From NCBI GenBank assembly GCA_963666115.2, contig CAXXET010000006.1, forward strand, positions 224,001 to 288,000: a DNA stretch of 64,000 nt, given 5' to 3'. Below, piece after piece: positions 20,985 through 60,290 of the stretch. The notes under the pieces were generated by a model. That model did no database searches, was not told where the DNA came from, and saw only the letters and a program-made list of their open reading frames with translations. The position numbers and the translations under genes are program-made. Position 1 is the stretch's first letter; each line of letters starts with the position of its first letter. The stretch comes from Dehalococcoidia bacterium. Lineage in GTDB: Bacteria; Chloroflexota; Dehalococcoidia; UBA6926.

Positions 20985-21029
20985 GTGGCACTGAATTCGC
21001 TGCGATTGAAAGAGTTTAGGGGGAGGTGA
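20985..21029 (+). repeat. Degenerate duplicate of the last 45 bp of copA
   Basis: 34/45 ungapped identity to 18728-18772; translates VALNSLRLKEFRGR* versus [14 protein letters not shown]. Confidence 0.75.
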
Positions 21030-23638: not shown

Positions 23639-23811
23639 GTATGCCTCCCTTGTAGTATTGCTCATGCATCCATGATTCATCGCGAGCAGCAGGGAGTCAG
23701 CACCAGTTTGGTGGACAAAAAGCCTCAGCCGACTCGGTTCGTGCGTTAAGATGGTTGAGGTTGCGGAAGAGGGAGGGCCTTGGGGCGCGCGGCGAGCGAG
23801 GGGGCTGAGCG

Positions 23812-37012: not shown

Positions 37013-37288
37013 TTACTTGCCGTCGATGAGGCCCTGTTCGGCCTCCCAGACTACATCGATAGGCGACACAATATCGCCAAGAATCTTAATTCGATCCCGG
37101 TCACGTCCGAAAGGCGGCGGGAATCGTTTCTCGTGTGGCGTGAGCCTGGCGACGGGTTTGCCGTTTTTTGTGATGATGATTTCCTCGCCGGATTCCGCGA
37201 CCTCGTCCATGAGCTTGAGGCACGTTGCCTTGAACTCGGATGCCTTGATGGTGCGGGGCGTTCCGGGAGTTGGTTCAGAAGTCGTCAT
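37013..37288 (-). CDS. Phd/YefM family antitoxin (orphan)
   Basis: TIKASEFKATCLKLMDEVAESGEEIIITKNGKPVARL; RBS AAGGGAG. Confidence 0.9.
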   Translation of the reverse strand: MTTSEPTPGTPRTIKASEFKATCLKLMDEVAESGEEIIITKNGKPVARLTPHEKRFPPPFGRDRDRIKILGDIVSPIDVVWEAEQGLIDGK

Positions 37289-37325
37289 GCCGCATTCTCC
37301 CTTGCAGCGATTTCCTGTCGTGTCG

Positions 37326-37356
37326 TGACCATAGTCATGACTATGGTCATAGTATA
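37326..37356 (-). promoter_or_regulatory. 24-bp perfect palindromic operator adjacent to a -10 box
   Basis: TGACCATAGTCATGACTATGGTCA at 37326-37349; TATACT on the minus strand at 37351-37356. Confidence 0.7.
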
Positions 37357-37496
37357 CGCGGGTCCTCCTGACCGCGTGGCGCTCTTTTCTGATTACGATG
37401 GCCGCTCCGGAGGGGTGGCGGGCTAGTATAGTGAAAAGTAAGGAGATTTTGCAAAACGTAAGGAACTTGCCGCGGCACGGAGTCAAGGAGGCTGAC

Positions 37497-37748
37497 GTGG
37501 AGGAATCAAAGATAACGTCCAAGGGGCAGACGACCATCCCGAAGAAGGTGCGGGAGGCGATGTCCATCAAGCCCGGCGACCGGCTGCGGTACGTGGTTGA
37601 TGACAATGTGCTGCTCGTCTTTCCCGTCCGCCCGATCAGCGAGCTTCACCGCTCTATGCCCTACGATGGTCCCACGGTGACCCTGGAGGAGATGGAGCAA
37701 GCTATCGAGGATGGGGCATTGGGCAGGCCAGTGCGGCCGAGGTCTTAG
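37497..37748 (+). CDS. AbrB/MazE-type antitoxin (VapB-like)
   Basis: SKITSKGQTTIPKKVREAM.IKPGDRL; GTG start after AAGGAGG. Confidence 0.9.
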   Translation: MEESKITSKGQTTIPKKVREAMSIKPGDRLRYVVDDNVLLVFPVRPISELHRSMPYDGPTVTLEEMEQAIEDGALGRPVRPRS

Positions 37749-37752
37749 GGGA

Positions 37753-38154
37753 ATGGTCGGTATCGACACCAACGTCCTGCTTCGCTATATCGTTGGGGAT
37801 GACGCTGGACAAGAGGCGGCGGCGACATTGCTGCTGGCGGGACTCACTCCGGAAAACCAGGGTTTCATTTGTCGGGAGGTGGTTCTCGAAACTGTGTGGG
37901 TGCTCGAACGCTCCTACCGGTTTTCACGCGCGCGCATAGCGACGGAACTGTCCACGTTCATCAATAGCGATCATCTCGTGCTGGAAACCGCTGAGGAGGT
38001 GGCGCGGGCAGCTATGCTTTACCGTGATGGCAACGACGATTTTTCGGACCTGTTGATCATGGAGGCGGCGCGGAGGATGGACGCGCTGCCGCTGTATACG
38101 TTTGACCGCAGGCTTGCTCGTATGGATGGGGCGGCGCTGGTGGGCGGAGGGTAG
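37753..38154 (+). CDS. vapC: PIN-domain toxin
   Basis: IDTNVLLR, VVLETVWVL, DFSD.LI, LYTFDR. Confidence 0.92.
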   Translation: MVGIDTNVLLRYIVGDDAGQEAAATLLLAGLTPENQGFICREVVLETVWVLERSYRFSRARIATELSTFINSDHLVLETAEEVARAAMLYRDGNDDFSDLLIMEAARRMDALPLYTFDRRLARMDGAALVGGG

Positions 38155-38163
38155 GGTGACGGT

Positions 38164-39033
38164 ATGGTTCGCGTTGTTAGCTGGAATATCGCCAGGCGAC
38201 ATGATCCGTGGCGGGAGCTTGTCGGAATGGATGCTGACATTGCGCTTGTGCAGGAGGGTGGTCAGCCGCCGGGGGATGTCCTGGACAGCGTCGATATAGG
38301 CCCAAAGGAATCGTACGATTCCCACCACTGGAACTCTGATTGGTGGAAGGGGCGCTGGCCGTATCTTGCTGAGCGTTGGCCCATGGTCGTCAAGCTGTCT
38401 GACAGTGTGGATGTGGAGTGGTTTAGACAGATTGCTCCAATAAGCGAGACTGCGGATGATGAGATTGCTGTCAGCGGTATTGGGACGATAACGGCCGTCA
38501 GAGTTACCCCAAAGGACGGTTCGACTGAGCCGTTTATCGCGATTTCCATGTACGCAAGGTGGCTTGGTCCGCATCCGAGCGTGGGGTCATCGTGGATATA
38601 CGCGGACGCTTCGGCGCACCGCATCATCTCTGATCTGTCTGCCTTTATCGGCTATGAGGATGCCAGCCGGCACAGAATCATCGCTGCTGGTGACCTGAAC
38701 ACGGGGTATGGCTATATCAGTAATCAGTATTGGGCAGGGAGAGACCAGACGATATTCGACAGGATGTCGGCTATTGGACTTGAACTCATCGGGCCGCAAG
38801 CGCCGAATGGGAGACAGGCCGTACCGATCCCTGAAGGCTTGCCGCCTGATACGAAGAATGTGCCCACCTACTACACCATCGCTCAGCGATACCCCGAGAA
38901 CGCGCAGATTCAACTCGACTATGCTTTCGCCTCGCGTGGGTTCCATGAGTCCATCAATGTCCGCGCACTCAATGAGGTTGATGAGTGGGGGCCGAGCGAC
39001 CACTGCCGGATACTGATTGATATTGATGGGTAG
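38164..39033 (+). CDS. Endonuclease/exonuclease/phosphatase (EEP) family protein
   Basis: VSWNI, LVQE, AGDLN, LDY.F, SDH motifs. Confidence 0.88.
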   Translation: MVRVVSWNIARRHDPWRELVGMDADIALVQEGGQPPGDVLDSVDIGPKESYDSHHWNSDWWKGRWPYLAERWPMVVKLSDSVDVEWFRQIAPISETADDEIAVSGIGTITAVRVTPKDGSTEPFIAISMYARWLGPHPSVGSSWIYADASAHRIISDLSAFIGYEDASRHRIIAAGDLNTGYGYISNQYWAGRDQTIFDRMSAIGLELIGPQAPNGRQAVPIPEGLPPDTKNVPTYYTIAQRYPENAQIQLDYAFASRGFHESINVRALNEVDEWGPSDHCRILIDIDG

Positions 39034-39066
39034 AGGCGCGAGAGACAGCGCCGACACGGAGGGACA

Positions 39067-40116
39067 ATGACGATTTCCGATAACGATAGCCTGCTGAGTT
39101 TCGTCGTGCTGCGGCACACGATGGGGCCGGAGGACGCGGCGACGGATGCCCTGTCTTTCATCCTGAAACGCTCGCCCTCCGCCATGCGGGCGTTATCTGA
39201 GTGCCTGGGCGATGACGACGGCCCACTGCCTGTTGCACGAGTGGGCACCCAAGCGTTTCTTGAGTCGTCCAGAGCCTACCCGGACATGGCACTGCATGAC
39301 TCCGAGGACAACTTGTCGGCATACGTCGAATCGAAGTTTTGGGCGCCACTGACCCACAACCAACCTGTCACCTATTGGGAAGCGCTGCCAACGGACAGGA
39401 GGTCCGTGCTGATGTTTCTGGCTCCCAAATACCGCGTCGATGAGCCGTCTCTGTGGGAGGAGTTGGTGAGTCGACTGCGCGAGAAGGGGCACAAACTGGG
39501 CCCGACGGATAGGAACGCAATGGGAATCTCGGCGAAATCGGCAATCGATCAGCGCCGCTTGATGCTCGCCAGCTGGACGGTATTGCTTGGCAAATTGGAG
39601 GGGAGTGCCAAGAAAGATGGGGATGCCCAGGCAGAATTCGAGGTCGTGCAACTGCAGGCACTGGCTGCGAATGTCGTAGGGGGCACCAGTGATCCTGAGA
39701 AAGAAGAATTCAAGCAGATACTTGCGGACGCCGTGGCCCGTCTCAGGGAATCCGGTTGGGCCGATACCAAGGGACTAACGGTAGGTCAGGGATACGGGTA
39801 CTACGGCAGGTATCTGCGTCTCGCGGGTGCCTATGCTTGGCTCGGTATTGTCGATGAGGCTGCAAAACAGATGCCTGATAAGCCGTTGTGGTTGTCTTTT
39901 GGACCGTGGGATCCCGATTACGTCGGCTTGGATTTGGTGCGCGACAGGCTAGAGGATGAGCTTGAATCAAGAACGGAGTGGCATGGTCTGCTGAATGTCT
40001 GTGTGCCGCTCTCCTTGCCGACGGACGCCGGCGCAAACGCGATGCGCCACGCTATCGTGACCGAGTTGGAGCGTATCGCCAGGCTCATTGACCCCGATGG
40101 GCCGACGTATAGGTGA
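39067..40116 (+). CDS. PD-(D/E)XK nuclease-like protein
   Basis: EDAAT..L, PD-(11)-ESKFWA.LT.NQP..Y pattern. Confidence 0.7.
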   Translation: MTISDNDSLLSFVVLRHTMGPEDAATDALSFILKRSPSAMRALSECLGDDDGPLPVARVGTQAFLESSRAYPDMALHDSEDNLSAYVESKFWAPLTHNQPVTYWEALPTDRRSVLMFLAPKYRVDEPSLWEELVSRLREKGHKLGPTDRNAMGISAKSAIDQRRLMLASWTVLLGKLEGSAKKDGDAQAEFEVVQLQALAANVVGGTSDPEKEEFKQILADAVARLRESGWADTKGLTVGQGYGYYGRYLRLAGAYAWLGIVDEAAKQMPDKPLWLSFGPWDPDYVGLDLVRDRLEDELESRTEWHGLLNVCVPLSLPTDAGANAMRHAIVTELERIARLIDPDGPTYR

Positions 40117-43270: not shown

Positions 43271-44098
43271 TCAACCCGAATTGGCCAGGCGGCGGGCTGT
43301 TGTTATGAAGCCGGTGTGGGCGACCATGCGGTGGGCGGGGCGGAGGGTCTGGGGGCCGGCGTCCCAGGGGCGGAGGGCGATTTCGAATTGTTCGATGAGG
43401 TCGAATACGGGGTCTGCGTCCAGGTCTTGCCAGAGGCGGTGCAGTTGGAGCGTGGTGGGGACGTAGGCGAGGAAGATGCCGCCGGGGCGCATGGCGTCCC
43501 GCGCGTGGGGAATGACGCGCCATGGTTCGGGCAGGTCCAGCACGACGCGGTCTACGGCCTGCTCCTCGATGCCATCCGCGTAGATGTCCGCGACGTGGAC
43601 GGTGAGGCGGTCCGACAACTCAGGCGGCAGGAACGTCGTGATGTTGCGCTGGGCGAGTGCGGCGAAATCGTCGCGGGTTTCATAGGAATGGACGCGGCCG
43701 GATTCGCCGACGGCTTGCAGCAGCGCGATTGTCAGCGCGCCTGAGCCGATGCCCGCCTCGACCACTGTCGCGCCGGGGCGGATGTCGGCATAGGTGAGGA
43801 TCGCGCCGATGTCCTTGGGGTAGATTGGCGTCGCGCCGCGCTTCATGGTCAGGATGTAGTCGGCGAGCGTGGGCCGCAGCGCGAGGTAGACGCCGCCCTT
43901 CTGCTCCGTGCGAAACTCGCTGCCCTCCGGATGGCCGATCATGTCGTCGTGCCGGATGATGCCGGCGTGGGAGTGGAACTCGCCGCCCTCCTTAAGGGTG
44001 ACAAGGTACTTGCGGCGCTTGCGGTCGGTGAGCAGGACGAGGTCGCCGGGGCGGAAGGCGCCTGGCATGGCGGCGGGGTTGTGGGGTTGGTTGGTCAT
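43271..44098 (-). CDS. trmI: tRNA (adenine-58-N1)-methyltransferase
   Basis: RPTL..Y...M.RGATPIYPKD, EAGIGSGALT, SYE.R.DF, LDLPEPW, RP.HRMVAHTGF. Confidence 0.95.
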   Translation of the reverse strand: MTNQPHNPAAMPGAFRPGDLVLLTDRKRRKYLVTLKEGGEFHSHAGIIRHDDMIGHPEGSEFRTEQKGGVYLALRPTLADYILTMKRGATPIYPKDIGAILTYADIRPGATVVEAGIGSGALTIALLQAVGESGRVHSYETRDDFAALAQRNITTFLPPELSDRLTVHVADIYADGIEEQAVDRVVLDLPEPWRVIPHARDAMRPGGIFLAYVPTTLQLHRLWQDLDADPVFDLIEQFEIALRPWDAGPQTLRPAHRMVAHTGFITTARRLANSG

Positions 44099-44118
44099 GG
44101 TGATATGGGCAACGAAAG

Positions 44119-44229
44119 TTATGTCGCAGAGATAGCACGGTAGGCGTCAAGGGCCTCCTGGCAGTTGCCGTCAAGGTTGACGTGGATGGAGAGGGTGGGG
44201 GGGGCTTCGTACTGTTGGTGGTTTGTCAT
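44119..44229 (-). pseudogene. Possible 5' remnant of a VOC/PhnB-family gene
   Basis: MTNHQQYEAPPTLSIHVNLDGNCQEALDAYRAISAT* resembles the PhnB N-terminal L.F.GNC.EA...Y motif, then stops. Confidence 0.4.
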
Positions 44230-44288
44230 GATGGGGGGCTTTCTTGATCCATCTTTCGCCCTACACGGCACTTCAATCTCTCACGTGC

Positions 44289-46598
44289 TTACGAACTGAC
44301 TCGCTGGCTGACAGTCGCCACATGAGCAGACAGTCCGCCGAGCCAATCGAGTTCCTCCGGCGTTATGTATCTCCTTCCCGTGTGGGAAAGCCGATTCCTC
44401 AATGTATTGAGGCGATCGAACCAACCCAGCTGCGCCCTTTTGGACCGGTCGGTGGGCGACATTGCCCATATGTTGTCGAAGTCTTGCCAATTGCTGTCAG
44501 CGATAGTCTTGTAGTCAACCAAGTTCAAGAACTCATGGGCCTCTCCGCCCTCGTCGCTTTCCTCCATCCGGGCGGAAGCCGAGCGTCGGATATTCTGTGG
44601 GATTGCGGGCCTCCACCAATCGTCAACGCTGCCCTCATATCTCTCGTCCAATATCCGAAACGTTACATCGCGGATCACGTTTTCGATTGTCCCCACCAAG
44701 TTCCGGGCGGTCTCTATGTTGCCCTCGTTGCTCTGCGCCAAGAATTCACTCAGGCCCTCCGGATCAAATTTCTGGAATTTTTCGTGAACGAGAGCCATTA
44801 CGCGCATGGCCGAATTCCGGTAGCCGCTGGATCCGTAATCCCTTTGCCGAAATTCCTTCATTACGGCATCGGCGTCGGCACCAGCAAAATAGTCGACGAT
44901 GGGTTCCAGGAGATATTTGATCAGGTCCAAGAGTTCGTGTGGCGAAGACTTCCACGGTTCGGATATGTTGCGCCTAGACAATTCATACGAGAGTGCCTCA
45001 CGTACGAAACGCAGGAGCGCAGTAATTCCGTTGTTGGTGCAGAGGAAACCACCAGGGCCTGCCAGCCTGCCCCAATGTTCCGGGCAGCCCCGAGATACTT
45101 CCAACAGGAATGCTTCCACGAACTGGCTACAGCGGTCGACCGAAGAGCTGTCGTCATTAGAATACAAGGAGCCCGGAGCGAACACACCGGCAGCTATGCG
45201 ACCAACGATCTGACTGTCTCTCACGGCATCTCTCAGGGACGGTCTGGTTATCGGTCTTGAAGTCGAGTCCGAACCCCATTCCCCTGCAACCAAATCGTAG
45301 AGTGGTGACGATCTCTTGGTTGCCAAGTTAGCGGCGACTCGCGAATTCAATTGGCGCAACTTGTCCTGTGGGCCAGCCGTTGGATCAAGGATTTCCGGCT
45401 CAAGCTCCACCAGAAGCCCCTTGGGCACCCGAACCTGCTTACTGTTGATGTCAACGAACATGTTGACTTCTTCTGCAGCAGTCAATCCCTCGAATGCCAA
45501 AACCGGAACTTTCCCCTTGCTGGCAAACTCAGTACGAGCAAAGCCGTAGAGGCGGTGCTGCCCATCGATCAAGTAGGCACTACGGTACGTATTCGGCAAA
45601 TACAGAGTCCCGAAGACTGTTGAATCCTCCGCGGCAGGACCGCTAGCCTCGAATCGCAGCGGTCGAGTCGGACGAAAATTGACGACGACATTTGTAGGGA
45701 AAATGCCCCCGTTGTGCTTCTCAATGTGTTCGGCTATAGCCTTAAGTCGATTGCGCCCGAGTAGCCGCTGATACGTGCCAACAGGATCCTCCTCACTGGA
45801 GCCCCTATGACTAACGTAGGCTAGTTTAAGTAGCTTCTCCGGTTCGATAGTGAACTGGTAAAACCGATTCTTCCCGAACCTGCCTCGGACTGCCGACACC
45901 GTCTCATTAAGTCCCGATATCGTGCTTCCCTGTAGAAGGTCGCCCAAGAGTTGGTATCGCGCAGCAGACTGTAGGATTCGAACCAATTTGTCGTAGTAGT
46001 CCAGCTGTCTGTCTCGCAGCACCGCGATCTGGAATTCCCTAGCTCGCGCCCTGTCGGGTTCACTCCAGTCGATGTTCCGGGTGGCATAGACAAATATGAC
46101 TCGCCGCCGGTCGCCAGGCACGTGCCTATGCACCGCTTGACGAATCGGCTCCTGGAGGGCTCTAGTTTCACCGAGGTCCTTCTGTAGTGATCGGGAACGC
46201 AGCGTTTCTGCCGCCTTGCATTCAACTACGATGGCTGTTTCGTCATCAACAGCAAACACGTCGATCTGCTTGGTCGGCGCCCCCGAGCCATTGGAGGCTA
46301 TGGGGATTCTGAAGCGATTATCCTTATTGATTTGCTTGAATCCCATTCGTGCCAGCAACATCCATATTTCATCTTCAAGTTGTTCGCCAACAGGCTTAGG
46401 TTTCCTCATCCGCACCGTCGACTTATTTGTCCGGACAAGCTCCCAGCCGTTCTCAAGCCTCATCTCTTCTTCTGCGGATGGGAAGGTGGACTCATAGAAG
46501 CGGCTTTTCCGCTGTCGCATCGCAGCCACTATCGTCTGTCCAGATATAAGTCCGGGCAGCGCATTTGCGTCAGCGGTCTCGGGATCGCGGAGAGTCAT
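44289..46598 (-). CDS. PD-(D/E)XK nuclease - DGQHR (DndB/ParB-like) - Swt1-type HEPN fusion protein
   Basis: QIDVFAVDDETAIVVECK; YQR...RL..I, FPTNVVV, LIDGQHRLYG, F.DIN.KQ..V; C-terminal IEN.IR...WW...LRNRLSH (RxxxxH). Confidence 0.85.
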   Translation of the reverse strand: MTLRDPETADANALPGLISGQTIVAAMRQRKSRFYESTFPSAEEEMRLENGWELVRTNKSTVRMRKPKPVGEQLEDEIWMLLARMGFKQINKDNRFRIPIASNGSGAPTKQIDVFAVDDETAIVVECKAAETLRSRSLQKDLGETRALQEPIRQAVHRHVPGDRRRVIFVYATRNIDWSEPDRARAREFQIAVLRDRQLDYYDKLVRILQSAARYQLLGDLLQGSTISGLNETVSAVRGRFGKNRFYQFTIEPEKLLKLAYVSHRGSSEEDPVGTYQRLLGRNRLKAIAEHIEKHNGGIFPTNVVVNFRPTRPLRFEASGPAAEDSTVFGTLYLPNTYRSAYLIDGQHRLYGFARTEFASKGKVPVLAFEGLTAAEEVNMFVDINSKQVRVPKGLLVELEPEILDPTAGPQDKLRQLNSRVAANLATKRSSPLYDLVAGEWGSDSTSRPITRPSLRDAVRDSQIVGRIAAGVFAPGSLYSNDDSSSVDRCSQFVEAFLLEVSRGCPEHWGRLAGPGGFLCTNNGITALLRFVREALSYELSRRNISEPWKSSPHELLDLIKYLLEPIVDYFAGADADAVMKEFRQRDYGSSGYRNSAMRVMALVHEKFQKFDPEGLSEFLAQSNEGNIETARNLVGTIENVIRDVTFRILDERYEGSVDDWWRPAIPQNIRRSASARMEESDEGGEAHEFLNLVDYKTIADSNWQDFDNIWAMSPTDRSKRAQLGWFDRLNTLRNRLSHTGRRYITPEELDWLGGLSAHVATVSQRVSS

Positions 46599-46610
46599 AG
46601 CAGGCCTGCC

Positions 46611-47219
46611 CTATCCACAGCCATTCAAGTTTATCTGAGCCATTTCATTTCCCCATTGTACCCATCCTTCGCGTCGATGTCGGGCAAAGAGCTCCAGATG
46701 GGGACCAGGGCTGCATTGCTCAATGATGTCGTACAGTTCATCGGGTTTTCGGGAGTGCTCCCGTCGCTGCGTTGCTAACAGATTCACTTGGCGTCTCCCA
46801 GGGGAAAACGTCCTTAGGTGACCCTTGACCCCAAATAGAATCAGCTCTGTGACGTTGCGAAAGTAGAAGCCAACACCCCGTCCGTCTGCCCCGCCGTCCT
46901 TGCGTACCTTGAACCAGACGAGATTTGTCTTGTACTCAAAGCCCCAGTGCTTCAGCACCTCTAGGCCCGTCTCAACGAGGGCGTTCGGAACCCACAAATA
47001 GAGATGGCTCTGGCTGTCCGCCAGGTCAGGAACAGGAATGTCCTTGATCTCGTCATTGCTCATAGAAGGATAGCGGTGTAGACGGTGGTACTCGGGTGCT
47101 ATCCGGCCAGTCCGATTCTTGAACCTCCAGGGGGGATCGGCCAAGATCGTCCCATAGGAATCCTCGGCAAGTTCCCCGATTTCGCCAACATGTTGGGCAA
47201 TAGTTGCTATCGTAGCCAT
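46611..47219 (-). CDS. MT-A70 family N6-adenine methyltransferase
   Basis: ILADPPW, HLYLWVPN, WGFEYK, R..TE..LFG..G, HSRKP, LELFAR, WGNE. Confidence 0.93.
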   Translation of the reverse strand: MATIATIAQHVGEIGELAEDSYGTILADPPWRFKNRTGRIAPEYHRLHRYPSMSNDEIKDIPVPDLADSQSHLYLWVPNALVETGLEVLKHWGFEYKTNLVWFKVRKDGGADGRGVGFYFRNVTELILFGVKGHLRTFSPGRRQVNLLATQRREHSRKPDELYDIIEQCSPGPHLELFARHRREGWVQWGNEMAQINLNGCG

Positions 47220-47384
47220 AGGCCCCGCTCCCCGTAAGGCATAACAGCTCACCTCCCCGCTCACTGTGTTAAAGGGTATCACCCTACGCCTACCCCCTAC
47301 CACTCACACCCCCGCAGCTCCCGCTGCTGCGCAGTCTTCGTCTTGTTGGCTGGTGGCGCCGCCTCGCCTGTGGCGATGACTTTT

Positions 47385-47498
47385 GCCCTCCTTAAAGGGT
47401 GACGAGGTACTTGCGGCGTTTGCGGTTGGTGAGCAGGGCTCGGTTGGCGGGGCGGAGGGCGCCGGGGTGGCGGTGGGGTTGTGGGGTTGGTTCGTCAT
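47385..47498 (-). pseudogene. Degenerate duplicate of the trmI 5' end
   Basis: 114-bp direct repeat of 43985-44098, roughly 85% identical with one insertion and one deletion; begins MTNQPHNP like TrmI. Confidence 0.88.
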
Positions 47499-47532
47499 CG
47501 TGTGCATCCGCTGATTTCGGGCAAAGAAAAAG

Positions 47533-47650
47533 CCCCGGCAACGACCTATTTTCCACAGAGGGCTGCCCCTCCAGTATCGTCGGCGCTGAAACGTTTCACT
47601 TCCGTGTTCGGGATGGGAACGGGTGGGTCCGCTTCGCCAGAGTCACCGGG
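47533..47650 (-). rRNA. rrf: 5S rRNA (stand-alone)
   Basis: Minus strand CCCGGTGAC...CCACCCGTTCCCATCCCGAACACGGAAGTGAAAC...GCGCCGACGATACT...AATAGGTCGTTGCCGGG; no 23S upstream. Confidence 0.93.
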
Positions 47651-51649: not shown

Positions 51650-54600
51650 ATGATTTCATCGGTTGGCGGGGTTGTGGGGTCTTGGCGAATCATCGTCCTG
51701 GGGTTGTTTGCCCTGGGGGCGGTGGTGTGGGCCGCGCAGCCCGTTGCGGCGTCGTCGCCGCCCGCCACGCCTGATTCCGTTACGGTGACCCGCGCCGACG
51801 GCACGCTCACCGCATCGTGGGTCGGCGTCTTCGGGGCGACCAGCTACCACATCACCTACAGTTCAGACGCCGGCGCAAGCTGGAGCCTCGCCGCCTTCAG
51901 CTACTCGCCTACCACCATCACCATCAGCAACATCTCCAACTCCAGCACGTACATCGTGGGTGTCCGCGCCTATAATCCCTCGGGCTGGAGCGGCTGGCGC
52001 AATTCCCCCTCCTCGCCGCCGTACTCCACTCTGCCCCCGCAGCCTCCGCCCACCTCGCCCCCCGCCAGCGTTGACGGTATCGCCACAACCCGCGCCGACG
52101 GAACGCTGACCGCAACGTGGACGTCCGTCCCAACCGCCACGCACTACCACATCACCTACTCGTCCAACGGCGGCGGAAGCTGGAGCCTTGCCGCCTACGC
52201 CCATCCCGCAGGCTCCCCCACAACCGGCATCACCTTCGGCGTCCACAACTCCAACACATATGTCGTGGGGGTGCGCGCGTGGAACGCGGCCGGCTGGAGC
52301 GGCTGGACGAACTCCGCGCCAAGCAATCCCTACTATGTGAACCCCCCGGCATTCCCGCCGCCCGCCATCTCCTCAATTACCACCTCCCGCAGCGCCGGCT
52401 CGCTCACCGCCACCTGGGACGCCGTGGGCACCGCGTCCAAGTACCACGTGAACTATTCGTCCAACGGCGGCGCGAGCTGGACCGCCGTCACCATGAACCA
52501 CCCCGCCGCGTCGCCCAAGACGAGCATCGTCATCAGCGTCGACCAGGCCAAGACCTATATCGTGGCCGCCCGCGCCGGCAACCACAGCGGATGGAGCGGC
52601 TGGACGAACTCATCGCCGGCCGAACCCGTCGGCCTCGATGCGCCCGCCACCGTCACGCTGGCGCACAACGGCACGACACTCGCGGCATCGTGGGATGCCG
52701 TGGACGATGCCTTCTGCTACGACGTCGAAATGCGGGACGGGCAGGGCGGCAGTTGGCTCCCCGTGCTTGTCGGCGCAACCGGAACCTCCGCGACCATCAC
52801 CGCGCCGAATCATCGCAGCAGCTACCAGATCCGCGTCCAGGCCCTCACTGAGGAAAACGCCGGCAGCCCCTGGACCGAGTCCTCCATGGCGCATCCGTCC
52901 ATGCAGCCCCCCGCCACTCCCTACTGGCTCAACCTCAGCCGCACCGGCCACGACACCGTGAAGGCCACGTGGAACGCCGTCTCCAACCAGACCGGCTACA
53001 CCGTCCAGTACAGCGGCGACAACTGGGCCACGCAGAGTTCCACGACTCTGGCCGCCGCCGATTCTTCCGCATTCTTCAACATGGACCTCACCAAGACATG
53101 GGTCGCCCGCGTCAAGGCCACCAACGTTTATGGCGACAGCCAGTGGAGATACTCCACCGCAATGGGACCGCCCCAGTTGACCGCCGAGGGCTTTTGGGAC
53201 TACGGCGAAATCAAGCTCACCAACTTCGGCGGCAACTGGTACTACAAGGCAAACGTCGGCCCACACGCCACCTGTCAGGGCCCCGTCTCCGGCGGCAGCC
53301 TGACCGTCAGCGGCCTCGCCAACGCCACGGAATACACATACAGCGTCCATGACAACGAAACCTGCGATGCCGTCACCGACGACGACGAAGAAACCTTCGA
53401 CACGACGCCGGTGAGCGTGAGCAACCTGGCCGAGACGACGGCTGGGACGGTCGGCATTGTCGGCAGGTACAGCAATACGGTCTACAGGCACGCCTCCGCC
53501 TTTAGCACGGGTTCCAACAGCGGCGGTTATGATCTGTCAAGCGTCACACTCGGTGTATGGCAGATTCAGGGTTCGCCTACGGCGCTCAACCTAACAATCC
53601 ACGCGGACAGCGGCGGCAACCCGGCCGGAAGCGCAACCCATACCCTGACGGGAACGTCGCCAACCGCAGGGGGCGACCACACCTACACGTGCCCCGGCAC
53701 CTGCAAGCTGGAACCCAACACGGTCTACCATCTGGTCATAGCCGCCAGCCTCCCCGCCTCAGGCAACCACTACTATGGCATCGACCGCACGACCTCCGAC
53801 AACCAGACGAACACGCCCTCTACAGCCGGCTGGTCCATCGGGAACGTGTATAAGTACAATTGGCCCGGCTTCAATTTCTGGAACACCAACACCGATTCAT
53901 ACATCCACCAGTTCACTGTGAATGCCACACCCATCGACCCCGATGCGCGCACCGTGGACAACCTCGGCGAGACGAAGGTCGGGACCAGCGCAGTCGGCAT
54001 GATTGATGGAACCGCCTACTCGCGAGCATCCGCCTTCACCACGGGTTCCGTCAGTGACGGGTACAAGCTGCAGGGTGTCACAATCAGCGTGGAGACCACC
54101 ACCGGCTCGCCCACGGGATTTACCGCGGCGATCCATCGGGCCAGCGGCAGCAGCCCGGCGTCCGCCGCGCTCTATACGCTGACCGGAACGACGCCGGCGG
54201 CGGGGGGAGGCGACTACACCTTCTCCTGCTCCGGAACCTGTTCCCTGTCGGCCAACACGACCTACTACCTGGTGATGAGTGGAACCGGCCCCAGCACGGG
54301 CCACCACTACTACGCCATCGACGAAACGACGTCGGACACCGAGACGAACACCCCGTCCTCCGCCGGTTGGTCCATTGCCAACGTCTCCAAGACCAGTTAC
54401 GGCGGCGGCGGCTGGAGTGACAATGGCCAATCGCGCATCCACCAATTCTCGGTGACGGCCAAGGAGGTCTCCATCCCCACGGCGGTCGCGGGCCCGGTTG
54501 GATTCAGCACCCTCACGCCCTTGAACCTGCTCACCGCCACCAATGTTGCGGACACAAGCCTCACGCTGAATATCTACAGTGGCTACACCAAGTTGGGTTG

Positions 54601-55777
54601 GTACTACTCGCGGATCGGCGGCGGCCCCACCGACCAGTGCGTCGCGGTTTCAGGCCACAGCGTGAATCTGACGGGGCTGACGGCAACGACGCGCTACGAA
54701 TACATCGCCTACTACGGCCCGTGGTGCCTGTCGTCCCAGATCATTGGCAGGACGTGGGTTACAACGGCGGACGCCGGTGTGGGCAACCTGACGCATAACC
54801 TGGACGGCGGCTGCGTCATCGGCAAGCCGAGCGGCTCGACCCATCGCCAGTGCGCCGCGGCGTTCACCACCGGCGCGAACCCCAACGGCGGATACTTCCT
54901 GCACTCCGCAGCCGTCCAGCTGGGCATCGACAGCGGCGGGACCGTTTCTACCAAGGTCGCACTCCACGCGGCTGACGGCAACGGGGCGCCGGAGACGCAG
55001 CCGATGGCCATGCTCGGCAGCACCGGCTCAAAGGCGCGCGGCGCCTACACCTTCACCTGCCTCAACAAGGGCACCTGCAACCTGGAGGAGAAGACCACGT
55101 ACTTCATCGTCGTCTCCGCGCCCTACTCCGCCTATAACTTCTGGCGCCACTGGGAGACCCGCAATTCCGGCCAGGAGTACCGCTGGCCCGCAGACCTCAA
55201 CTGGGCAATCACCGGCGGCGCGATGTACAAGCTCGGCAACGGCGACTGGACGGAAGACCCCTCCGGCAAGACGCCCGTGTTCCACGTGGCCGTCAGTGAG
55301 ACCGGCGGCGGCACGCTCACCGCGCAGACGATAGAGGCGACGGAGGCATCTCTTCGCATCAGCGGACACACCGGCGCCTGGTACTTCAACAGCAACAAGT
55401 CGCCGTACAACAGCACGTGCACCGCCATTAGCAGCGGCACCCGCGTCGACGTCACCGGGCTGTCGGGTGAAACGCACTACGTCTTCACGGCGTACAGCGA
55501 CAGTTCCTGCACGACACCGATCGCGTCCACGCAGTTCACCACGCTACGGGCGGCGAGCCTGACGGCCACGGTGAACAGCGACGACACGGTCTACCTGACG
55601 CTGTCCGACGGCCCGGATGACTGGTGGTTCAGGATCGGCCACGGTTGCCACGCGGTAAGCGGAAACAGGTATCCCACCACCGGCGGCATAGGCGGCTACA
55701 CGGGAACCCACACGGTGACGGCCTATTCAGACAACACCTGCACAACGCAGATAGCATCAACGACGTTCACGGTATGA
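51650..55777 (+). CDS. Large secreted fibronectin type III repeat protein
   Basis: Signal peptide; five FN3 repeats (L.A.W...YH.TYSS.GG.SW...Y.VGVRA.N..GWS.W); three AFTTG..GY.L beta domains; Cys-paired modules. Confidence 0.88.
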   Translation: MISSVGGVVGSWRIIVLGLFALGAVVWAAQPVAASSPPATPDSVTVTRADGTLTASWVGVFGATSYHITYSSDAGASWSLAAFSYSPTTITISNISNSSTYIVGVRAYNPSGWSGWRNSPSSPPYSTLPPQPPPTSPPASVDGIATTRADGTLTATWTSVPTATHYHITYSSNGGGSWSLAAYAHPAGSPTTGITFGVHNSNTYVVGVRAWNAAGWSGWTNSAPSNPYYVNPPAFPPPAISSITTSRSAGSLTATWDAVGTASKYHVNYSSNGGASWTAVTMNHPAASPKTSIVISVDQAKTYIVAARAGNHSGWSGWTNSSPAEPVGLDAPATVTLAHNGTTLAASWDAVDDAFCYDVEMRDGQGGSWLPVLVGATGTSATITAPNHRSSYQIRVQALTEENAGSPWTESSMAHPSMQPPATPYWLNLSRTGHDTVKATWNAVSNQTGYTVQYSGDNWATQSSTTLAAADSSAFFNMDLTKTWVARVKATNVYGDSQWRYSTAMGPPQLTAEGFWDYGEIKLTNFGGNWYYKANVGPHATCQGPVSGGSLTVSGLANATEYTYSVHDNETCDAVTDDDEETFDTTPVSVSNLAETTAGTVGIVGRYSNTVYRHASAFSTGSNSGGYDLSSVTLGVWQIQGSPTALNLTIHADSGGNPAGSATHTLTGTSPTAGGDHTYTCPGTCKLEPNTVYHLVIAASLPASGNHYYGIDRTTSDNQTNTPSTAGWSIGNVYKYNWPGFNFWNTNTDSYIHQFTVNATPIDPDARTVDNLGETKVGTSAVGMIDGTAYSRASAFTTGSVSDGYKLQGVTISVETTTGSPTGFTAAIHRASGSSPASAALYTLTGTTPAAGGGDYTFSCSGTCSLSANTTYYLVMSGTGPSTGHHYYAIDETTSDTETNTPSSAGWSIANVSKTSYGGGGWSDNGQSRIHQFSVTAKEVSIPTAVAGPVGFSTLTPLNLLTATNVADTSLTLNIYSGYTKLGWYYSRIGGGPTDQCVAVSGHSVNLTGLTATTRYEYIAYYGPWCLSSQIIGRTWVTTADAGVGNLTHNLDGGCVIGKPSGSTHRQCAAAFTTGANPNGGYFLHSAAVQLGIDSGGTVSTKVALHAADGNGAPETQPMAMLGSTGSKARGAYTFTCLNKGTCNLEEKTTYFIVVSAPYSAYNFWRHWETRNSGQEYRWPADLNWAITGGAMYKLGNGDWTEDPSGKTPVFHVAVSETGGGTLTAQTIEATEASLRISGHTGAWYFNSNKSPYNSTCTAISSGTRVDVTGLSGETHYVFTAYSDSSCTTPIASTQFTTLRAASLTATVNSDDTVYLTLSDGPDDWWFRIGHGCHAVSGNRYPTTGGIGGYTGTHTVTAYSDNTCTTQIASTTFTV

Positions 55778-55820
55778 CGCGCGGCTACTCCTTCCCGAAT
55801 GCACGTTCGGATGGCGCGCC

Positions 55821-58800
55821 ATGCGCCGGCTGACATTGGGCGTCATCGCCCTCCTTGCGGCGGGCATGACGTTGTCCGTCTCCCCCGTGGCGGCGCAGAC
55901 TTCCCCCGGCCAGGTGGCGAGCGTCACCGTCACCCGCTCCAACAACACCCTCACCGCATCCTGGGACGCCCCGTCAGGCGCGACCAAGTACCACGTCACC
56001 TATAGCTCCGATAACAAGAAGAGCTGGAGCCTCGCCGCCTACGACTTAACCGCCACCACCATCGACATCACCGGCATCGATACGTCGAAGGCATACATCG
56101 TCGGCGTGAGGGCGGGCAACGAACACGGCTGGGGCGGTTGGCGCAACTCCGCCCCCAACAGCCCCCCAGGCCCTCCCGCCCGTCCCGGCTACGTCACCAT
56201 CAACCGCGTCGACGGGTCGATCACCGCCTCCTGGAACTCAATCGTCGGCGCGGACAAGTACCACGTCACCTACAGCGCGGACGGCAAGAAGAGTTGGAGC
56301 CTTGCCGCCGCGTCCCACCCCTCCACCAGCATCACCATCAACGTCGATAACCAGTATCCCTACGTCGTTGGCGTCCGCGCAGGCAAGACCGAGGGCAACA
56401 ACACCCTGTGGGGCAAGTGGCGCAACTCCTGGTCGACCCCTCCCTGGGTTCCCGCCGATCCACCCCCGTCCGCCCCGGCAAGCGTCACACTCGATCGCGG
56501 CTGCGACACGTTCAGCATCAGTTGGACTGCCGTCCCCGGCGCGACCGGCTACGACGTCAACATCAGCAAGAACAACCGCAAGAGCTGGTCGCGCGGCCTC
56601 AGCAACGTCACCTACACGACGTGGAACTTCGTCAAGTGGAGCAAGAACAAGCCCTACACCATCGCCGTCCGCGCCCGCAACGGCGGCGGCGAAAGCGGCT
56701 GGACAAACTCCGCAACTGTCCAGCCCCCGCCCTGCGAAGTGGGCAATCTCCGCGCCGTCACCTCGACCACCCACGGCACGGCAGGCGGCAGCATCACCAC
56801 GAGTTGGAACGCCGCCACCCGCGCCACCGCCTACAACGTCAACTACCGCTCCGACGGCGGCCAATGGCAGCGCATCGCCACCGGCCAAACCGCCACCACC
56901 CACACCGGAACCGTTACCACGACGGGCGGCCACACTGTCGCCGTCCAGTCCACCAACGGCGGCGCAATGAGCAAGTGGCGCAACACTGGCGTCGGCTGGC
57001 TGACGGCGAGCAGCATCACCGGAACCGGCGCAACTATCACCCTCTCCGGCCACTCCGGCAGTTGGCACGTCAAGAAGACATCGCCCGCCCCCGCCGGAAC
57101 CTGCTCGTCCGCCATCAGCGGCACGACGCATGACCTCTCCAACCTGTTCGCCACCACAACCTACACCTACGCCGCCTTCAAAGACTCCGCCTGCGCCAAC
57201 GCCATCGGCAGCGCGACCTTCACCACCGGCGCATCCACCGCAGTCCCATCCGCCCCCGCCGCCCCCGCCCTCACCACCGCCAACGCCCAACTCAAGGTGG
57301 ACTGGACGGCCCCTGCCCACGGAGGGTCCGCTATCACCGACTACGACCTCCGCTACCGCGTGAATGGCACGACCAACTGGAGCGCCGCCTTCATCCAGGG
57401 CGCGACCTACAGCCCCGGACTCGTGGGGAACGGCATACAGAGCAACGGCAGCACGGGGCAGGCGCTCAACTTGGGGAACGTCAGCCTCTCCGGCCTCACG
57501 GTGACGAAGGTGACCGCAGGCGGCATATCCAACGTCTACAAGATCAGCGAGGCCGTGGGCGGGTTCCGGCTCACGCTGAATGCGCGAAACGCGAAGCACA
57601 ACACGACGCTGACGTACCGGGCGCGTTACGCCTCGACCGCGCCGGCGGCCAGCAACATGAACACCCATGGCACGCTCCTGTGGGAGCATACCGTCGGCTA
57701 TGGCTCCAGCTTCACCCGAGACGCCTGGACGCTGGCCCTGCCCGCCAACACCCATTTCTGGATTACGACAACCGCCAACGGCACGACCGACGGCGTCAGG
57801 CCGACCATCATGGCGGACGCAGTCAGAGTCCCCTCGCCGCTGAGGACGAATATCACGGGCCTGGCCAACGGCACGAGCTACGACGTGCAGGCGCGCGCCT
57901 CCAACGCCAACGGCATCGGCGCATGGTCGCCCTCGGCAACGCTCAAGGCCGGCCTGCCCGCCCGCGCGAGTGCCCCCACCATTGTGTATTCGGGCAACGG
58001 CCTGCTTGCGGTGACCTGGGCGGCGGTTTCCGGCAACGGCTCCGCCATCACCGACTACGATCTCCGCTACTCCTCCGATGGCGGCTCGACGTGGACGAAC
58101 GTCGAGATGAACGCGGCGGCCAACACGGCCCGCTCCTACACCAGGACGAGTCTCACCAACGACACCGCCTACGTGGTGCAGGCGCGCGCAAGCAACACAC
58201 ACGGCGACGGCCTCTGGTCGCCATCGTCATTGTCCGTCAAGGCGGGCGCCCCCGACGCCCCGGCCGCCCCCGCCCTCGCCTCCGGCAACGCAACGCTGAC
58301 CGCAACGTGGACGGCTCCCGCGAACAACGGCTCGGCCGTCACCCGCTACGACGTGCAATACTCCACCGACGGCTCCACGTGGTCGTCCGCCAACGTAACC
58401 ATCACCCTGTCAACCCGCACAGCCGTCATCACCGGCCTCACCAATGACACCGCCTACCAGGTGCGCGTCCGTGCCACGAACACCCGCGCCACCGGCGCGT
58501 GGTCAACCTCCGCCACCGACAAGCCTGGCCGCCCGCAGGCTCCCGCTGCCCCAACGTTGACGGCGGGCGCGCGGCAATTGACCGCAACCTGGACCGGCAC
58601 GACAAACGGCCTGGCCATCACGGACTACGATGTCCAATACCGCAAGTCGAGCGCGACGGACTGGTCGGACTGGGCGCACACCGGCACGGCGACGACGGCC
58701 ACCATCACGGGCCTTGAGGGCGTCGTTACTTACCGGGTGCGCGTGCGGGCGGAGAGCTCGGCGGGCGATGGGCCCTGGTCGCCAACGGCGTCCCTGGCCA

Positions 58801-60290
58801 CCAACGCGAGCATCCCTGATAGGCCCGCCGCGCCCACCCTCGACCTCGGCGTCGCCAATCAGATCACGGCTCGCTGGATCGCTCCCTACGACGGCGGCTC
58901 AGACCTCACGGGCTTCAAGGTGCGCTACAAGGAATCCTCGGCTTCCGGATGGACGACGCACACCTTCTCCTCAACCGGCGCCACCACTCAGACCACCATT
59001 TCCAGCCTGACCTCAGACACGAAGTACGACGTGCAGGTGCGCGCCACCAACGGCATCGGCGACAGCGTGTGGTCGGATACGACGCAAGGCACGGAGGGCG
59101 GTCTCTCACAGCCGACCGCCACCCTCTCGCCCGGCAACGGGCGGCTCCTCGTGTCCTGGACGGCCCCATCGAACCCCGGCACGGGCATCACCGACTACGA
59201 CGTGCGCTACCGCCAGGTGGGAGCAAGCGACTGGACGCGGGTCTCGGACGGGGGAACGGTTGGGCATGGCCACCAATTGAACTCCGACTCCGCCAGCAGC
59301 ACAGACCCGATTGACTTCGGCAACCTGGGCGCAGGGATCACCCGGGAGGCGCTGGGGAGCAACAACGGCCTCTACAAGGTTCCCAACGCCATCGACGAAA
59401 TGCGAATCTACATGCAGGCCAACAACGGCGCCGCTTTCACCCTGCGGACATCGTCTTCCAAGCCGACGGACCTCAGCGTGGGAACCGTTCTGGCATCGTC
59501 GTCGACAACGACGCCAAATAACCAGTTCACGGAGTGGGTCGGCCCCATCGCGGCCAACGGCTACTTCTGGGCGGCGCCCGCCACCGGCTCTTCGACGTAC
59601 CACTTCCGCTATCGCCGGATCTACCACATCGACCTGGCGACCACCGACACGAACTACACCATCGGCAACCTGACTAACGGCACGGAGTACGAGGTGCAGG
59701 TGCGCGCCGAGAACTCCGGCGGTGAAAGCGAGTGGTCGAGCCCGGTCAAGGGAACGCCGACGGTTCCCGCGCTGACCGCATCCAACATCCAGCCGAAGGA
59801 GGCGACGCTCAACATCACCGTCCACACCGCACAGTGGTGGTACAAGGCGGACACGGGGCCGCATACCTCCTGCCAGGGCCCCGTCGACGCCGGCACAGCC
59901 ACCAGGCGCGTCACTCACCTCTCCCCCGGCACGACCTACGTTTACACCGCCTACACCGACAGCGGCTGCTCTGACGTGATCGTCACCGGGAACGCCTTCA
60001 CGACGGAGCTCAGCCTCGATGTCTATGACGTCACGCCGACCGACCTCACACTAACCCTCCACGGCTGGACTCAAGCCTGGTGGTTCAAGCGCACGTCCGG
60101 ACCGACTGCGGACGACACGTGCCACTCCGTATCCGCCGGCCAGAGCGGCTACTTGACGAACCTGCAGCACTCCAGCCATTACACCTACAAGGCCTACAGC
60201 GCCTCCGGCTGCGCCGCCGCCAACGAACTCGCCGAACGAGGCTTCAACACCCCAATCCCCAACCAGAACCCCAACCCCCCAGACCACTAA
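55821..60290 (+). CDS. Large secreted fibronectin type III repeat protein
   Basis: Signal peptide; about ten FN3 repeats (W..P..GS.ITDYD.RY...L.NGT.Y.VQ.RA.N..G.G.WS); Cys-paired modules; Pro-rich tail. Confidence 0.9.
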   Translation: MRRLTLGVIALLAAGMTLSVSPVAAQTSPGQVASVTVTRSNNTLTASWDAPSGATKYHVTYSSDNKKSWSLAAYDLTATTIDITGIDTSKAYIVGVRAGNEHGWGGWRNSAPNSPPGPPARPGYVTINRVDGSITASWNSIVGADKYHVTYSADGKKSWSLAAASHPSTSITINVDNQYPYVVGVRAGKTEGNNTLWGKWRNSWSTPPWVPADPPPSAPASVTLDRGCDTFSISWTAVPGATGYDVNISKNNRKSWSRGLSNVTYTTWNFVKWSKNKPYTIAVRARNGGGESGWTNSATVQPPPCEVGNLRAVTSTTHGTAGGSITTSWNAATRATAYNVNYRSDGGQWQRIATGQTATTHTGTVTTTGGHTVAVQSTNGGAMSKWRNTGVGWLTASSITGTGATITLSGHSGSWHVKKTSPAPAGTCSSAISGTTHDLSNLFATTTYTYAAFKDSACANAIGSATFTTGASTAVPSAPAAPALTTANAQLKVDWTAPAHGGSAITDYDLRYRVNGTTNWSAAFIQGATYSPGLVGNGIQSNGSTGQALNLGNVSLSGLTVTKVTAGGISNVYKISEAVGGFRLTLNARNAKHNTTLTYRARYASTAPAASNMNTHGTLLWEHTVGYGSSFTRDAWTLALPANTHFWITTTANGTTDGVRPTIMADAVRVPSPLRTNITGLANGTSYDVQARASNANGIGAWSPSATLKAGLPARASAPTIVYSGNGLLAVTWAAVSGNGSAITDYDLRYSSDGGSTWTNVEMNAAANTARSYTRTSLTNDTAYVVQARASNTHGDGLWSPSSLSVKAGAPDAPAAPALASGNATLTATWTAPANNGSAVTRYDVQYSTDGSTWSSANVTITLSTRTAVITGLTNDTAYQVRVRATNTRATGAWSTSATDKPGRPQAPAAPTLTAGARQLTATWTGTTNGLAITDYDVQYRKSSATDWSDWAHTGTATTATITGLEGVVTYRVRVRAESSAGDGPWSPTASLATNASIPDRPAAPTLDLGVANQITARWIAPYDGGSDLTGFKVRYKESSASGWTTHTFSSTGATTQTTISSLTSDTKYDVQVRATNGIGDSVWSDTTQGTEGGLSQPTATLSPGNGRLLVSWTAPSNPGTGITDYDVRYRQVGASDWTRVSDGGTVGHGHQLNSDSASSTDPIDFGNLGAGITREALGSNNGLYKVPNAIDEMRIYMQANNGAAFTLRTSSSKPTDLSVGTVLASSSTTTPNNQFTEWVGPIAANGYFWAAPATGSSTYHFRYRRIYHIDLATTDTNYTIGNLTNGTEYEVQVRAENSGGESEWSSPVKGTPTVPALTASNIQPKEATLNITVHTAQWWYKADTGPHTSCQGPVDAGTATRRVTHLSPGTTYVYTAYTDSGCSDVIVTGNAFTTELSLDVYDVTPTDLTLTLHGWTQAWWFKRTSGPTADDTCHSVSAGQSGYLTNLQHSSHYTYKAYSASGCAAANELAERGFNTPIPNQNPNPPDH

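Follow-up and report, generated by a model that had tools for sequence, protein, structure and literature searches.

The stretch analysed here, 64,000 nucleotides (nt) of contig CAXXET010000006.1 from the Dehalococcoidia bacterium assembly GCA_963666115.2 (hereafter the window), carries a two-gene operon that pairs a predicted MT-A70-family DNA methyltransferase with a 769-amino-acid (aa) protein, the fusion, in which two nuclease domains flank a DGQHR/ParB-type nucleotide-binding domain and a helical domain. Both open reading frames (ORFs) lie on the minus strand, at the positions and with the 12-nt gap (46599-46610) that an earlier note on this DNA, made from its letters alone, had described; feature coordinates are collected in Table 1. 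We find that relatives of the fusion almost always lie beside a single type of DNA-modification gene, that this modifier has been exchanged repeatedly between unrelated classes, and that the operon is mobile. Our favoured explanation, held tentatively and given a little under an even chance, is a candidate defence system against phages or plasmids in which the fusion would read a DNA mark in a manner resembling SspE.

The earlier division of the fusion into nuclease, DGQHR and HEPN parts is borne out by motifs, family matches and predicted structure. The protein scores 148 bits against the TIGR03187 DGQHR model (cut-off 58.85), with DGQHR at residues 345-349 and RNRLSH at 734-739; its nuclease motif reads ID-x12-ECK (D113 to E126), one residue wider than the ID-(11)-ECK first given. 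In an AlphaFold2 model (mean predicted local distance difference test score, pLDDT, 87.7), residues ~12-220 match restriction-endonuclease folds (1y88, Z 12.1, root-mean-square deviation [rmsd] 2.2, 118 aligned; Card1 6wxw, Z 10.0), residues 236-390 match ParB folds (PadC 6ryk, Z 8.1, rmsd 2.7, 99 aligned), and residues 624-769 match HEPN folds (AbiF 8vz6, Z 9.2, rmsd 3.2, 135 aligned; Swt1 4pqz, Z 7.5), the last two scores being moderate for a helical fold. The helical domain between them is modelled confidently (pLDDT 95.2), and a fold search with it gave no clear match, the best being an unrelated helical protein at Z 6.3. Sequence searches of the PDB with the fusion and its profile returned nothing significant. 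A predicted complex of fusion and methylase scored 0.00, which we use neither for nor against an interaction, and no longer fused forms (1,347-3,845 aa) were found among 5,357 candidates, itself weak evidence. Extra domains do occur in individual relatives. P0171 has an N-terminal addition of ~200 aa (residues 7-208) without a Pfam match, which shares 34% identity (E 1e-31) with the N-terminal part of an ABC-type ATPase beside another fusion (L130:8622-10805), and P0232 has a C-terminal DUF4357 domain.

The partner methylase contains the DPPW motif reported for it and matches the PADLOC model MTase_II at 6.6e-84. We prefer its ATG start at 47219 over a GTG at 47303 because homologues at loci L003 and L005 begin at the same place. 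The best phage match is NrS3_07 of Nitratiruptor phage NrS-3 (64% identity over 180 aa), which is M.Nph3I, an enzyme that makes RG(m6A)TCY, that is, it yields N6-methyladenine (m6A) at the adenine of RGATCY (PMC10734518; this and the other papers cited here are drawn on from the portions of their text available to us). GATC specificity is also found in two prokaryotic MT-A70 enzymes of more distant relationship (PMC7556043). Given these homologues, from which the chemistry of the enzyme is also taken, its target is likely to be DNA with a GATC core, either RGATCY or another GATC-core site. The closest annotated plasmid relatives of the methylase are partnered by a BglII/BstYI-type restriction enzyme in two of the three regions read.

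Relatives of the fusion are numerous: 1,505 of 8,000 candidates scored reach E 1e-20 or better, and at E 1e-30 or better there are 1,067 clusters at 50% identity, partial matches included. Our set of 176 loci, 163 of them distinct, draws on plasmids and viral contigs as well as genomes and metagenomes (the best 80 of 520 and the best 80 of 546 candidates). Clustering of neighbouring genes at the first 91 loci returned three recurring partners, namely a Dam-type D12 methylase, a radical-SAM protein with a GHKL ATPase, and an MT-A70 methylase. Over the 163 distinct loci, 78 have a Dam-type modifier, 52 the radical-SAM/GHKL pair, 15 an MT-A70, 4 another D12 methylase and 14 none; no locus has two types. 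Of the 116 distinct loci with at least 1 kb available on both sides, all but two carry a single type of modifier, 114 in total (54 Dam-type, 43 B12/radical-SAM with GHKL ATPase, 13 MT-A70, 4 other D12 methylase), making the linkage nearly obligate. The two remaining loci are L116, discussed below, and L171, whose fusion is truncated and sits beside apparent insertion-sequence genes. The modifier lies within 300 nt of the fusion at 78/78 Dam-type loci and 14/15 MT-A70 loci, and among relatives at least 44% identical to our fusion an MT-A70 gene is directly upstream in 12/12 distinct loci. Control loci, which were not size-matched, have a modifier in 0/19 cases for trmI and 2/19 for viral short-DGQHR matches. 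The MT-A70 gene at L167 was considered as a fusion partner and is probably not one; it forms part of an adjacent BglII-type pair encoded on the opposite strand.

That the fusion is linked to a DNA methylase, as the earlier note proposed, is supported, and the unit it named has to be widened: MT-A70 is a minority partner, and the Dam-type and radical-SAM/GHKL partners are commoner. Three Dam-type partners that we tested score 227-245 bits on TIGR00571 (cut-off 114.85). The Dam-type and MT-A70 enzymes are unrelated methylase classes, and by homology both point to a GATC core. The radical-SAM partner has a CxxxCxxC motif and an N-terminal region like a cobalamin-binding domain; its family support is weak (PF02310 in L061, and a B12/radical-SAM match), and its position in place of a methylase suggests that it, too, modifies DNA.

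On a FastTree tree of 149 fusions, which has neither a true root nor bootstrap values, the partner changes at least six times. MT-A70 appears twice and the radical-SAM module in three places; Dam-linked rows occur throughout, a spread from which ancestral Dam linkage is only suggested. Gene decay at these loci runs in one direction. Excluding the unclear L118, seven loci have a broken fusion with an intact modifier, two have both genes broken, and none has an intact fusion with a broken modifier. Two apparent broken radical-SAM genes (L019 and L126) were rejected, as they are intact frames of 556-560 aa that were split only in the BLAST alignment. Observed/expected counts of GATC in the fusion genes are 0.87 (11 MT-A70-linked), 0.96 (32 Dam-linked) and 0.88 (34 radical-SAM-linked). 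In the host genome GATC (0.71), AGATCT (0.45) and GGATCC (0.51) are under-represented. This depletion cannot be due to a recent insertion, and contig C6 holds a separate BglII-like pair that confounds it.

Conservation across the same 149 fusions (146 distinct) centres on the nucleotide-binding domain, which scores 0.58 vs 0.39-0.51 for the other domains. H264, Y276-Q277-R278, D345-R349, N385, Q388 and N522 are invariant in 149/149. Among the 139 sequences whose alignment includes the HEPN residues R734 and H739, 137 keep both and 2 are altered; the other 10 do not reach this motif. The D-ExK motif of the nuclease is intact in 13/13 MT-A70-linked, 70/75 Dam-linked and 3/3 other-D12-linked copies vs 5/49 radical-SAM-linked ones, and 42 of the 44 copies that lack it read ECT. 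As this change is in essence confined to a single clade and the acidic residues are kept, the nuclease domain of radical-SAM-linked copies may be altered rather than dead. The HEPN domain does not look like the back-up RNase that the earlier note saw in it, being the more constant output. Both active sites are kept across bacteria and archaea. Compared with the 71%-identical L003, synonymous differences are saturated (pS 0.83-0.93) while nonsynonymous ones are low in every fusion domain and in the methylase (pN 0.07-0.24), so both genes are under purifying selection; the MT-A70 catalytic core is 88% identical to that of L003. One member of the MT-A70 clade (P0010, L004:1050-3386) shows the opposite of the radical-SAM clade, with the HEPN RxxxxH lost and the DNase motif kept.

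The operon reached its present position by insertion into the 5′ end of trmI. Loci from congeners match the window until 44117 and resume at 47385, which defines a cassette holding only the two genes. Its atypical composition, remarked on in the earlier note, is evident from a GC content of 55.1% vs 61-66% in the flanking kilobases. We fetched 19 loci from 21 congeners, and in 18 of them the site is empty, with the upstream gene, the 5S rRNA gene and trmI contiguous and nothing between them; at the 19th the upstream region differs. A stretch of ~110 nt from the 5′ end of trmI occurs on both sides of the cassette, the decayed copy being 86% and 78% identical to the working one (direct repeat families D1 and D2). 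The copy next to the 5S gene is continuous with it in congeners, and is therefore the ancestral one, since decayed. An assembly artefact was rejected, as the trmI copies are 14-22% different and the gene pair recurs in other genomes; contigs from two sequencing runs, one of which may derive from the source sample, are short and cover parts of the cassette, none spanning it whole. No RNA run is listed as containing it. No integrase or transposase was recognised in the cassette, which has no third long ORF of that kind, and the best matches in a promoter scan are just 9-of-12.

Table 1. Features of the operon and its insertion site (window positions, or fusion residues where so marked)
Feature	Position	Strand	Basis or key residues
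Inserted low-GC cassette, only two genes	44118..47384		~3.27 kb, 55.1% GC; congener alignments
769-aa effector (predicted)	44289..46598	-	PD-(D/E)xK + DGQHR/ParB + helical + Swt1/AbiF-type HEPN
PD-(D/E)xK nuclease domain	fusion residues ~66-222		E75, D113, E126, K128
DGQHR/DndB-type ParB-fold nucleotide-binding domain (predicted)	fusion residues ~230-400		H264, Y276-Q277-R278, D345-R349, F381-N385
Helical domain without clear fold match	fusion residues 392-625		
Swt1/AbiF-type HEPN domain	fusion residues 625-765		R734, H739
MT-A70-family N6-adenine DNA methyltransferase (predicted), 202 aa	46611..47219	-	DPPW (D28-W31); PF05063 E 8.5e-33
trmI (tRNA m1A58 methyltransferase)	43271-44098	-	PF08704, PF14801
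Working trmI 5′ end, one copy of the flanking duplication	43994..44102	-	direct repeat families D1, D2; alignment
Decayed second copy of the trmI 5′ end	47395..47502	-	frame-shifted, out of frame; beside 5S rRNA gene
5S rRNA gene, upstream flank, host gene outside the system	47533..47650	-	RF00001, 89 bits

The distribution of the fusion is likewise that of a mobile element. Its nearest named relatives are in Dehalococcoidia and other Chloroflexota, and full-length copies occur in 3 of 22 genomes of the genus and 9 of 401 of the phylum. The other two copies in the genus lie elsewhere than trmI (one 45 kb from it, one on another contig), both with an MT-A70 gene upstream. A full-length homologue, 33% identical and of the radical-SAM version, is on the Novosphingobium plasmid pNL1. 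Among 50,697 annotated phage records there is no full-length fusion; of 22 loci on viral contigs, three have a full-length copy, each linked to a Dam-type gene. Neighbours at several loci are of defence type (PIN-ATPase pairs, Mrr, BglII-like pairs, an SNF2 helicase), and the mobile, defence-like character ascribed to the operon in the earlier note is supported.

Comparison with described systems places the operon near several and within none. It is closest in plan to SspABCD-SspE, which also joins a DNA-modifying module to an effector with a ParB-type NTPase (DGQQR, where the fusion has DGQHR), a YQR patch and a DNase domain; the fusion has this pocket and patch by motif and by its ParB fold (Z 8.1). 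The predicted mark, however, is m6A rather than phosphorothioate, the modifier is interchangeable, the nuclease is an N-terminal PD-(D/E)xK domain, and a HEPN RNase domain is added. We met no sspABCD genes beside the effector, either in the two-gene cassette or among the recurring neighbours of the 91 loci. The methylase, with its intact catalytic motif and predicted RGATCY target, recalls Nph3I-type restriction-modification (RM) pairs of a BglII/BstYI enzyme and an MT-A70 methylase, yet here an unrelated four-domain protein stands in for the short BglII-family enzyme, and no restriction-enzyme model appears among the PADLOC, Pfam and NCBIfam matches of the fusion. GmrSD and BrxU likewise join a nuclease to a ParB-fold domain that bears QR, DGQ(H/Q)R and FxxxN motifs (PMC4619093). 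Whereas GmrSD uses an HNH domain to cut invading DNA that is modified, the fusion is accompanied by a modifier of its own; it has no DUF262 or HNH (DUF1524) family match, and the structural match of BrxU to its helical domain is weak and within noise (Z 4.5, rmsd 4.6, 146 aligned). DndB and DpdB belong to the same DGQHR family by TIGR03187, but in the fusion this domain is joined to two nucleases, and the protein scores only 83 bits against DpdB (cut-off 300) and 66 bits against dnd-associated DGQHR protein 1 (cut-off 450). The fusion is the sole TIGR03187 match in the genome, which leaves no second DGQHR gene and so no separate DndB or DpdB, where the earlier note had claimed an absence of dnd and dpd genes for the window; no search aimed at the other dnd and dpd genes was made. 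PbeA, which the earlier note had grouped with these DGQHR proteins, is no DGQHR protein according to PMC10853773, where it is described as an HKD nuclease fused to an SF2 helicase.

Two further precedents concern the sensor and the HEPN domain. PUA-Cal-HAD links an effector to adenine methylation and is a possible precedent for a mark that serves as an alarm; unlike the fusion it uses a PUA sensor and phosphoesterase effectors, and ParB and DndB are unmentioned in the part of its text that was searched (bioRxiv 10.64898/2026.01.15.699771). The HEPN fold and RxxxxH motif of our fusion are those of the Swt1/AbiF-like group, and PF18731 (HEPN_Swt1) matches three fusion homologues. Table 1 of PMC3710099 lists a Swt1-like HEPN fusion as 'ParB (Saro_3948), mostly active', which is probably the pNL1 homologue and hence this protein family, although the locus-tag match is uncertain; the available part of that paper mentions neither a nuclease domain nor partner genes nor a function in its case. 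Fusions of the DGQHR/ParB-type domain class to HNH, PD-(D/E)xK or HEPN domains have been noted in general terms (PMC3632139). No full-length PADLOC v2 model, PDC-M34 included, matches the fusion, which has partial matches to DpdB (residues 236-531), PDC-M34B (629-742, E 4e-8) and CARF_PDDEXK (78-201, E 0.001). A literature search, with subscription journals mostly outside its coverage, found the operon and its partners undescribed, in keeping with the earlier note's impression of novelty. On the features tested the operon falls outside the Ssp, Dnd, Dpd, GmrSD and known type II systems. It is plausibly an SspE-like, modification-linked candidate defence system, new in its effector architecture and in its swapping of unrelated modifiers.

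The mechanism we tentatively propose would run as follows. The MT-A70 enzyme would write m6A at GATC-core sites of the host chromosome, probably RGATCY. The DGQHR/ParB domain would bind a nucleoside triphosphate, a property taken from homologues, and together with the helical domain would sense the modification state of the DNA it engages. On marked self DNA the switch would turn over and the protein be released; if the DNA is an invader's and unmarked, or if marking breaks down, DNA would be cut by the PD-(D/E)xK domain and RNA by the HEPN domain, leading to dormancy or death. SspE detects its phosphorothioate mark through a patch (Y30/Q31/R32) next to the DGQQR pocket. The patch also stimulates the hydrolysis of GTP, whereby self DNA is let go and the nickase becomes active; the mark thus also switches the enzyme on, beyond the self-marking envisaged in the earlier note (PMC9646914). 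The YQR of the fusion may be the counterpart of that patch, judging from likeness of motif rather than alignment, and a DndB-like protein binds both ATP and GTP (PMC12704722). Modifier linkage, the shared GATC core, the invariant YQR and DGQHR motifs, one-way decay and mobility all support this SspE-like reading.

Several observations weigh against it. Both the QR pair and DGQHR are shared throughout the family (PMC4619093) and are therefore no proof of mark reading, no DNA-recognition domain was identified in the fusion, and palindrome counts gave no clear GATC avoidance in the fusion genes. The reader needs re-tuning for each move from GATC to RGATCY to the radical-SAM product. One-way decay is weak as evidence, with a chance of ~0.06 from gene length alone by hand calculation, and metagenome assembly errors may account for some of the broken fusions. 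The loci counted were taken from the top of two candidate lists, and related ones are not independent. At L116, finally, an intact fusion, followed by an Mrr gene, has 5 kb on each side with no modifier found.

A mark could also act once it is set free. Phage degradation of host DNA would release methylated nucleotides, which would bind the DGQHR pocket and set off non-specific RNase and DNase in an abortive infection; any abundant adenine methylase would then do, with the radical-SAM enzyme providing another kind of barcode. The six or more modifier swaps on the tree agree with this, as do the lack of clear GATC avoidance in the fusion genes, the retention of HEPN (137/139) beside the loss of D-ExK in radical-SAM-linked copies (5/49 intact), and the resemblance of the nuclease domain to the ligand-activated nucleases Card1, Can2 and Cdn1. 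There is a precedent in PUA-Cal-HAD, which senses Dam-derived m6-dAMP and whose relatives accompany adenine methylases in the absence of restriction enzymes (bioRxiv 10.64898/2026.01.15.699771). Yet the Card1/Can2 match extends to the generic nuclease fold only, our literature search found no report of a ParB-fold domain sensing a modified free nucleotide, and modifier loss would be harmless, whereas no intact fusion has a broken modifier. The GATC core common to both methylase classes fits reading at the site, although GATC methylases are also simply common. We regard this explanation as unlikely, though far from negligible. Less probable still is a conventional type II-like pair in which the fusion cuts at or near unmethylated GATC-core sites, the methylase only protects, and the ParB and HEPN domains are accessory. 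The BglII/BstYI-type partners of the closest methylase relatives, the D-ExK motif preserved in methylase-linked copies (13/13, 70/75 and 3/3), one-way decay and the depletion of GATC, AGATCT and GGATCC in the host genome would all suit such a pair. The nucleotide-binding domain, however, is the best conserved and so hardly accessory, the fusion is unlike the BglII-type partner it replaced (hhalign probability 0.3), the genomic depletion has the contig C6 pair as its confounder and cannot stem from a recent insertion, and the radical-SAM clade is left unexplained.

To two other explanations we give little credence. The methylase protein itself might silence the fusion, as in a guard or toxin-antitoxin pair, with a phage inhibitor or loss of S-adenosylmethionine releasing it; tight gene spacing and one-way decay would be expected. 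HEPN RNases that guard restriction systems are known, for example PrrC. The HEPN proteins named in PMC3710099 include PrrC. The Dam-class, MT-A70 and radical-SAM proteins nevertheless have unrelated folds, which makes a single binding surface for all of them improbable, and the catalytic core of MT-A70 has been kept (88% identity to L003). It is equally hard to credit that the operon is no defence at all, being either a selfish addiction cassette or a DndB-like methylase regulator whose nucleases act only when the cassette is lost. DndB is an ATP-dependent repressor of its own modification genes (PMC10853773), and the patchy distribution and different insertion sites would suit a selfish element; against this, two nuclease active sites are kept across bacteria and archaea, several neighbours are of defence type, and addiction and defence are not mutually exclusive.

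A broader reading is less likely than not, yet more than remote: the fusion may be a general reader of DNA marks or freed marked nucleotides, re-pairable with any modifier, in which case the radical-SAM/GHKL link would reveal an undescribed bacterial immune DNA modification read by the same ParB-fold switch as m6A.

Other genes at these loci and in this genome deserve mention in their own right. Two archaeal Dam-linked fusions are closely followed by genes for a BglII-family endonuclease and an N6/N4 methylase (L012:9296-10957, L016:9726-11293), and a similar pair is found elsewhere in the present genome (G000:C6:65912-67427). Twelve plasmid records carry a three-gene module of a short DGQHR protein, a cobalamin-type radical-SAM protein and a GHKL ATPase (L001:11897-14517, L002:10497-14720, L225:5968-10203, L226:5983-10206, L227:5932-10209), and only five of the twelve also carry a full-length fusion. 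In three fusion-free module regions that were read, a DEAD/DEAH helicase adjoins, with a ParB-domain gene in two and a PIN-ATPase pair in two. The radical-SAM and ATPase proteins of the module have no PADLOC match, and we consider it a candidate for an undescribed DNA modification system. Within the window, a prokaryotic viperin gene (22766-23680, minus strand; NF038283, 314 bits vs a cut-off of 180) overlaps the gene for a 586-aa TPR-like protein (21016-22776, minus strand) in a lower-GC stretch at 19-23 kb. A second lower-GC stretch (37013-40116, 57-58%) holds a Phd-type antitoxin and an AbrB-type antitoxin that is followed by a gene judged PIN-like by eye, together with an exonuclease/endonuclease/phosphatase-family gene and a 349-aa gene without a family match. 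At 51650-60290 on the plus strand, two very long ORFs (1,375 and 1,489 aa) have signal-peptide-like starts and, by eye, repeated fibronectin-III-like segments.

If the operon works as we propose, it would represent a widespread candidate immune system of bacteria and archaea for which PADLOC v2 holds no full-length model. The two-gene version is minimal and its methylase site predictable, which would make it an easy test of what a DndB-type ParB domain does in modification-linked defence, where the standing question is whether the mark shields self DNA, licenses the effector or raises an alarm. Natural swaps among three unrelated modifier chemistries offer ready-made controls for such a test, and the radical-SAM partner may write a DNA modification as yet undescribed.

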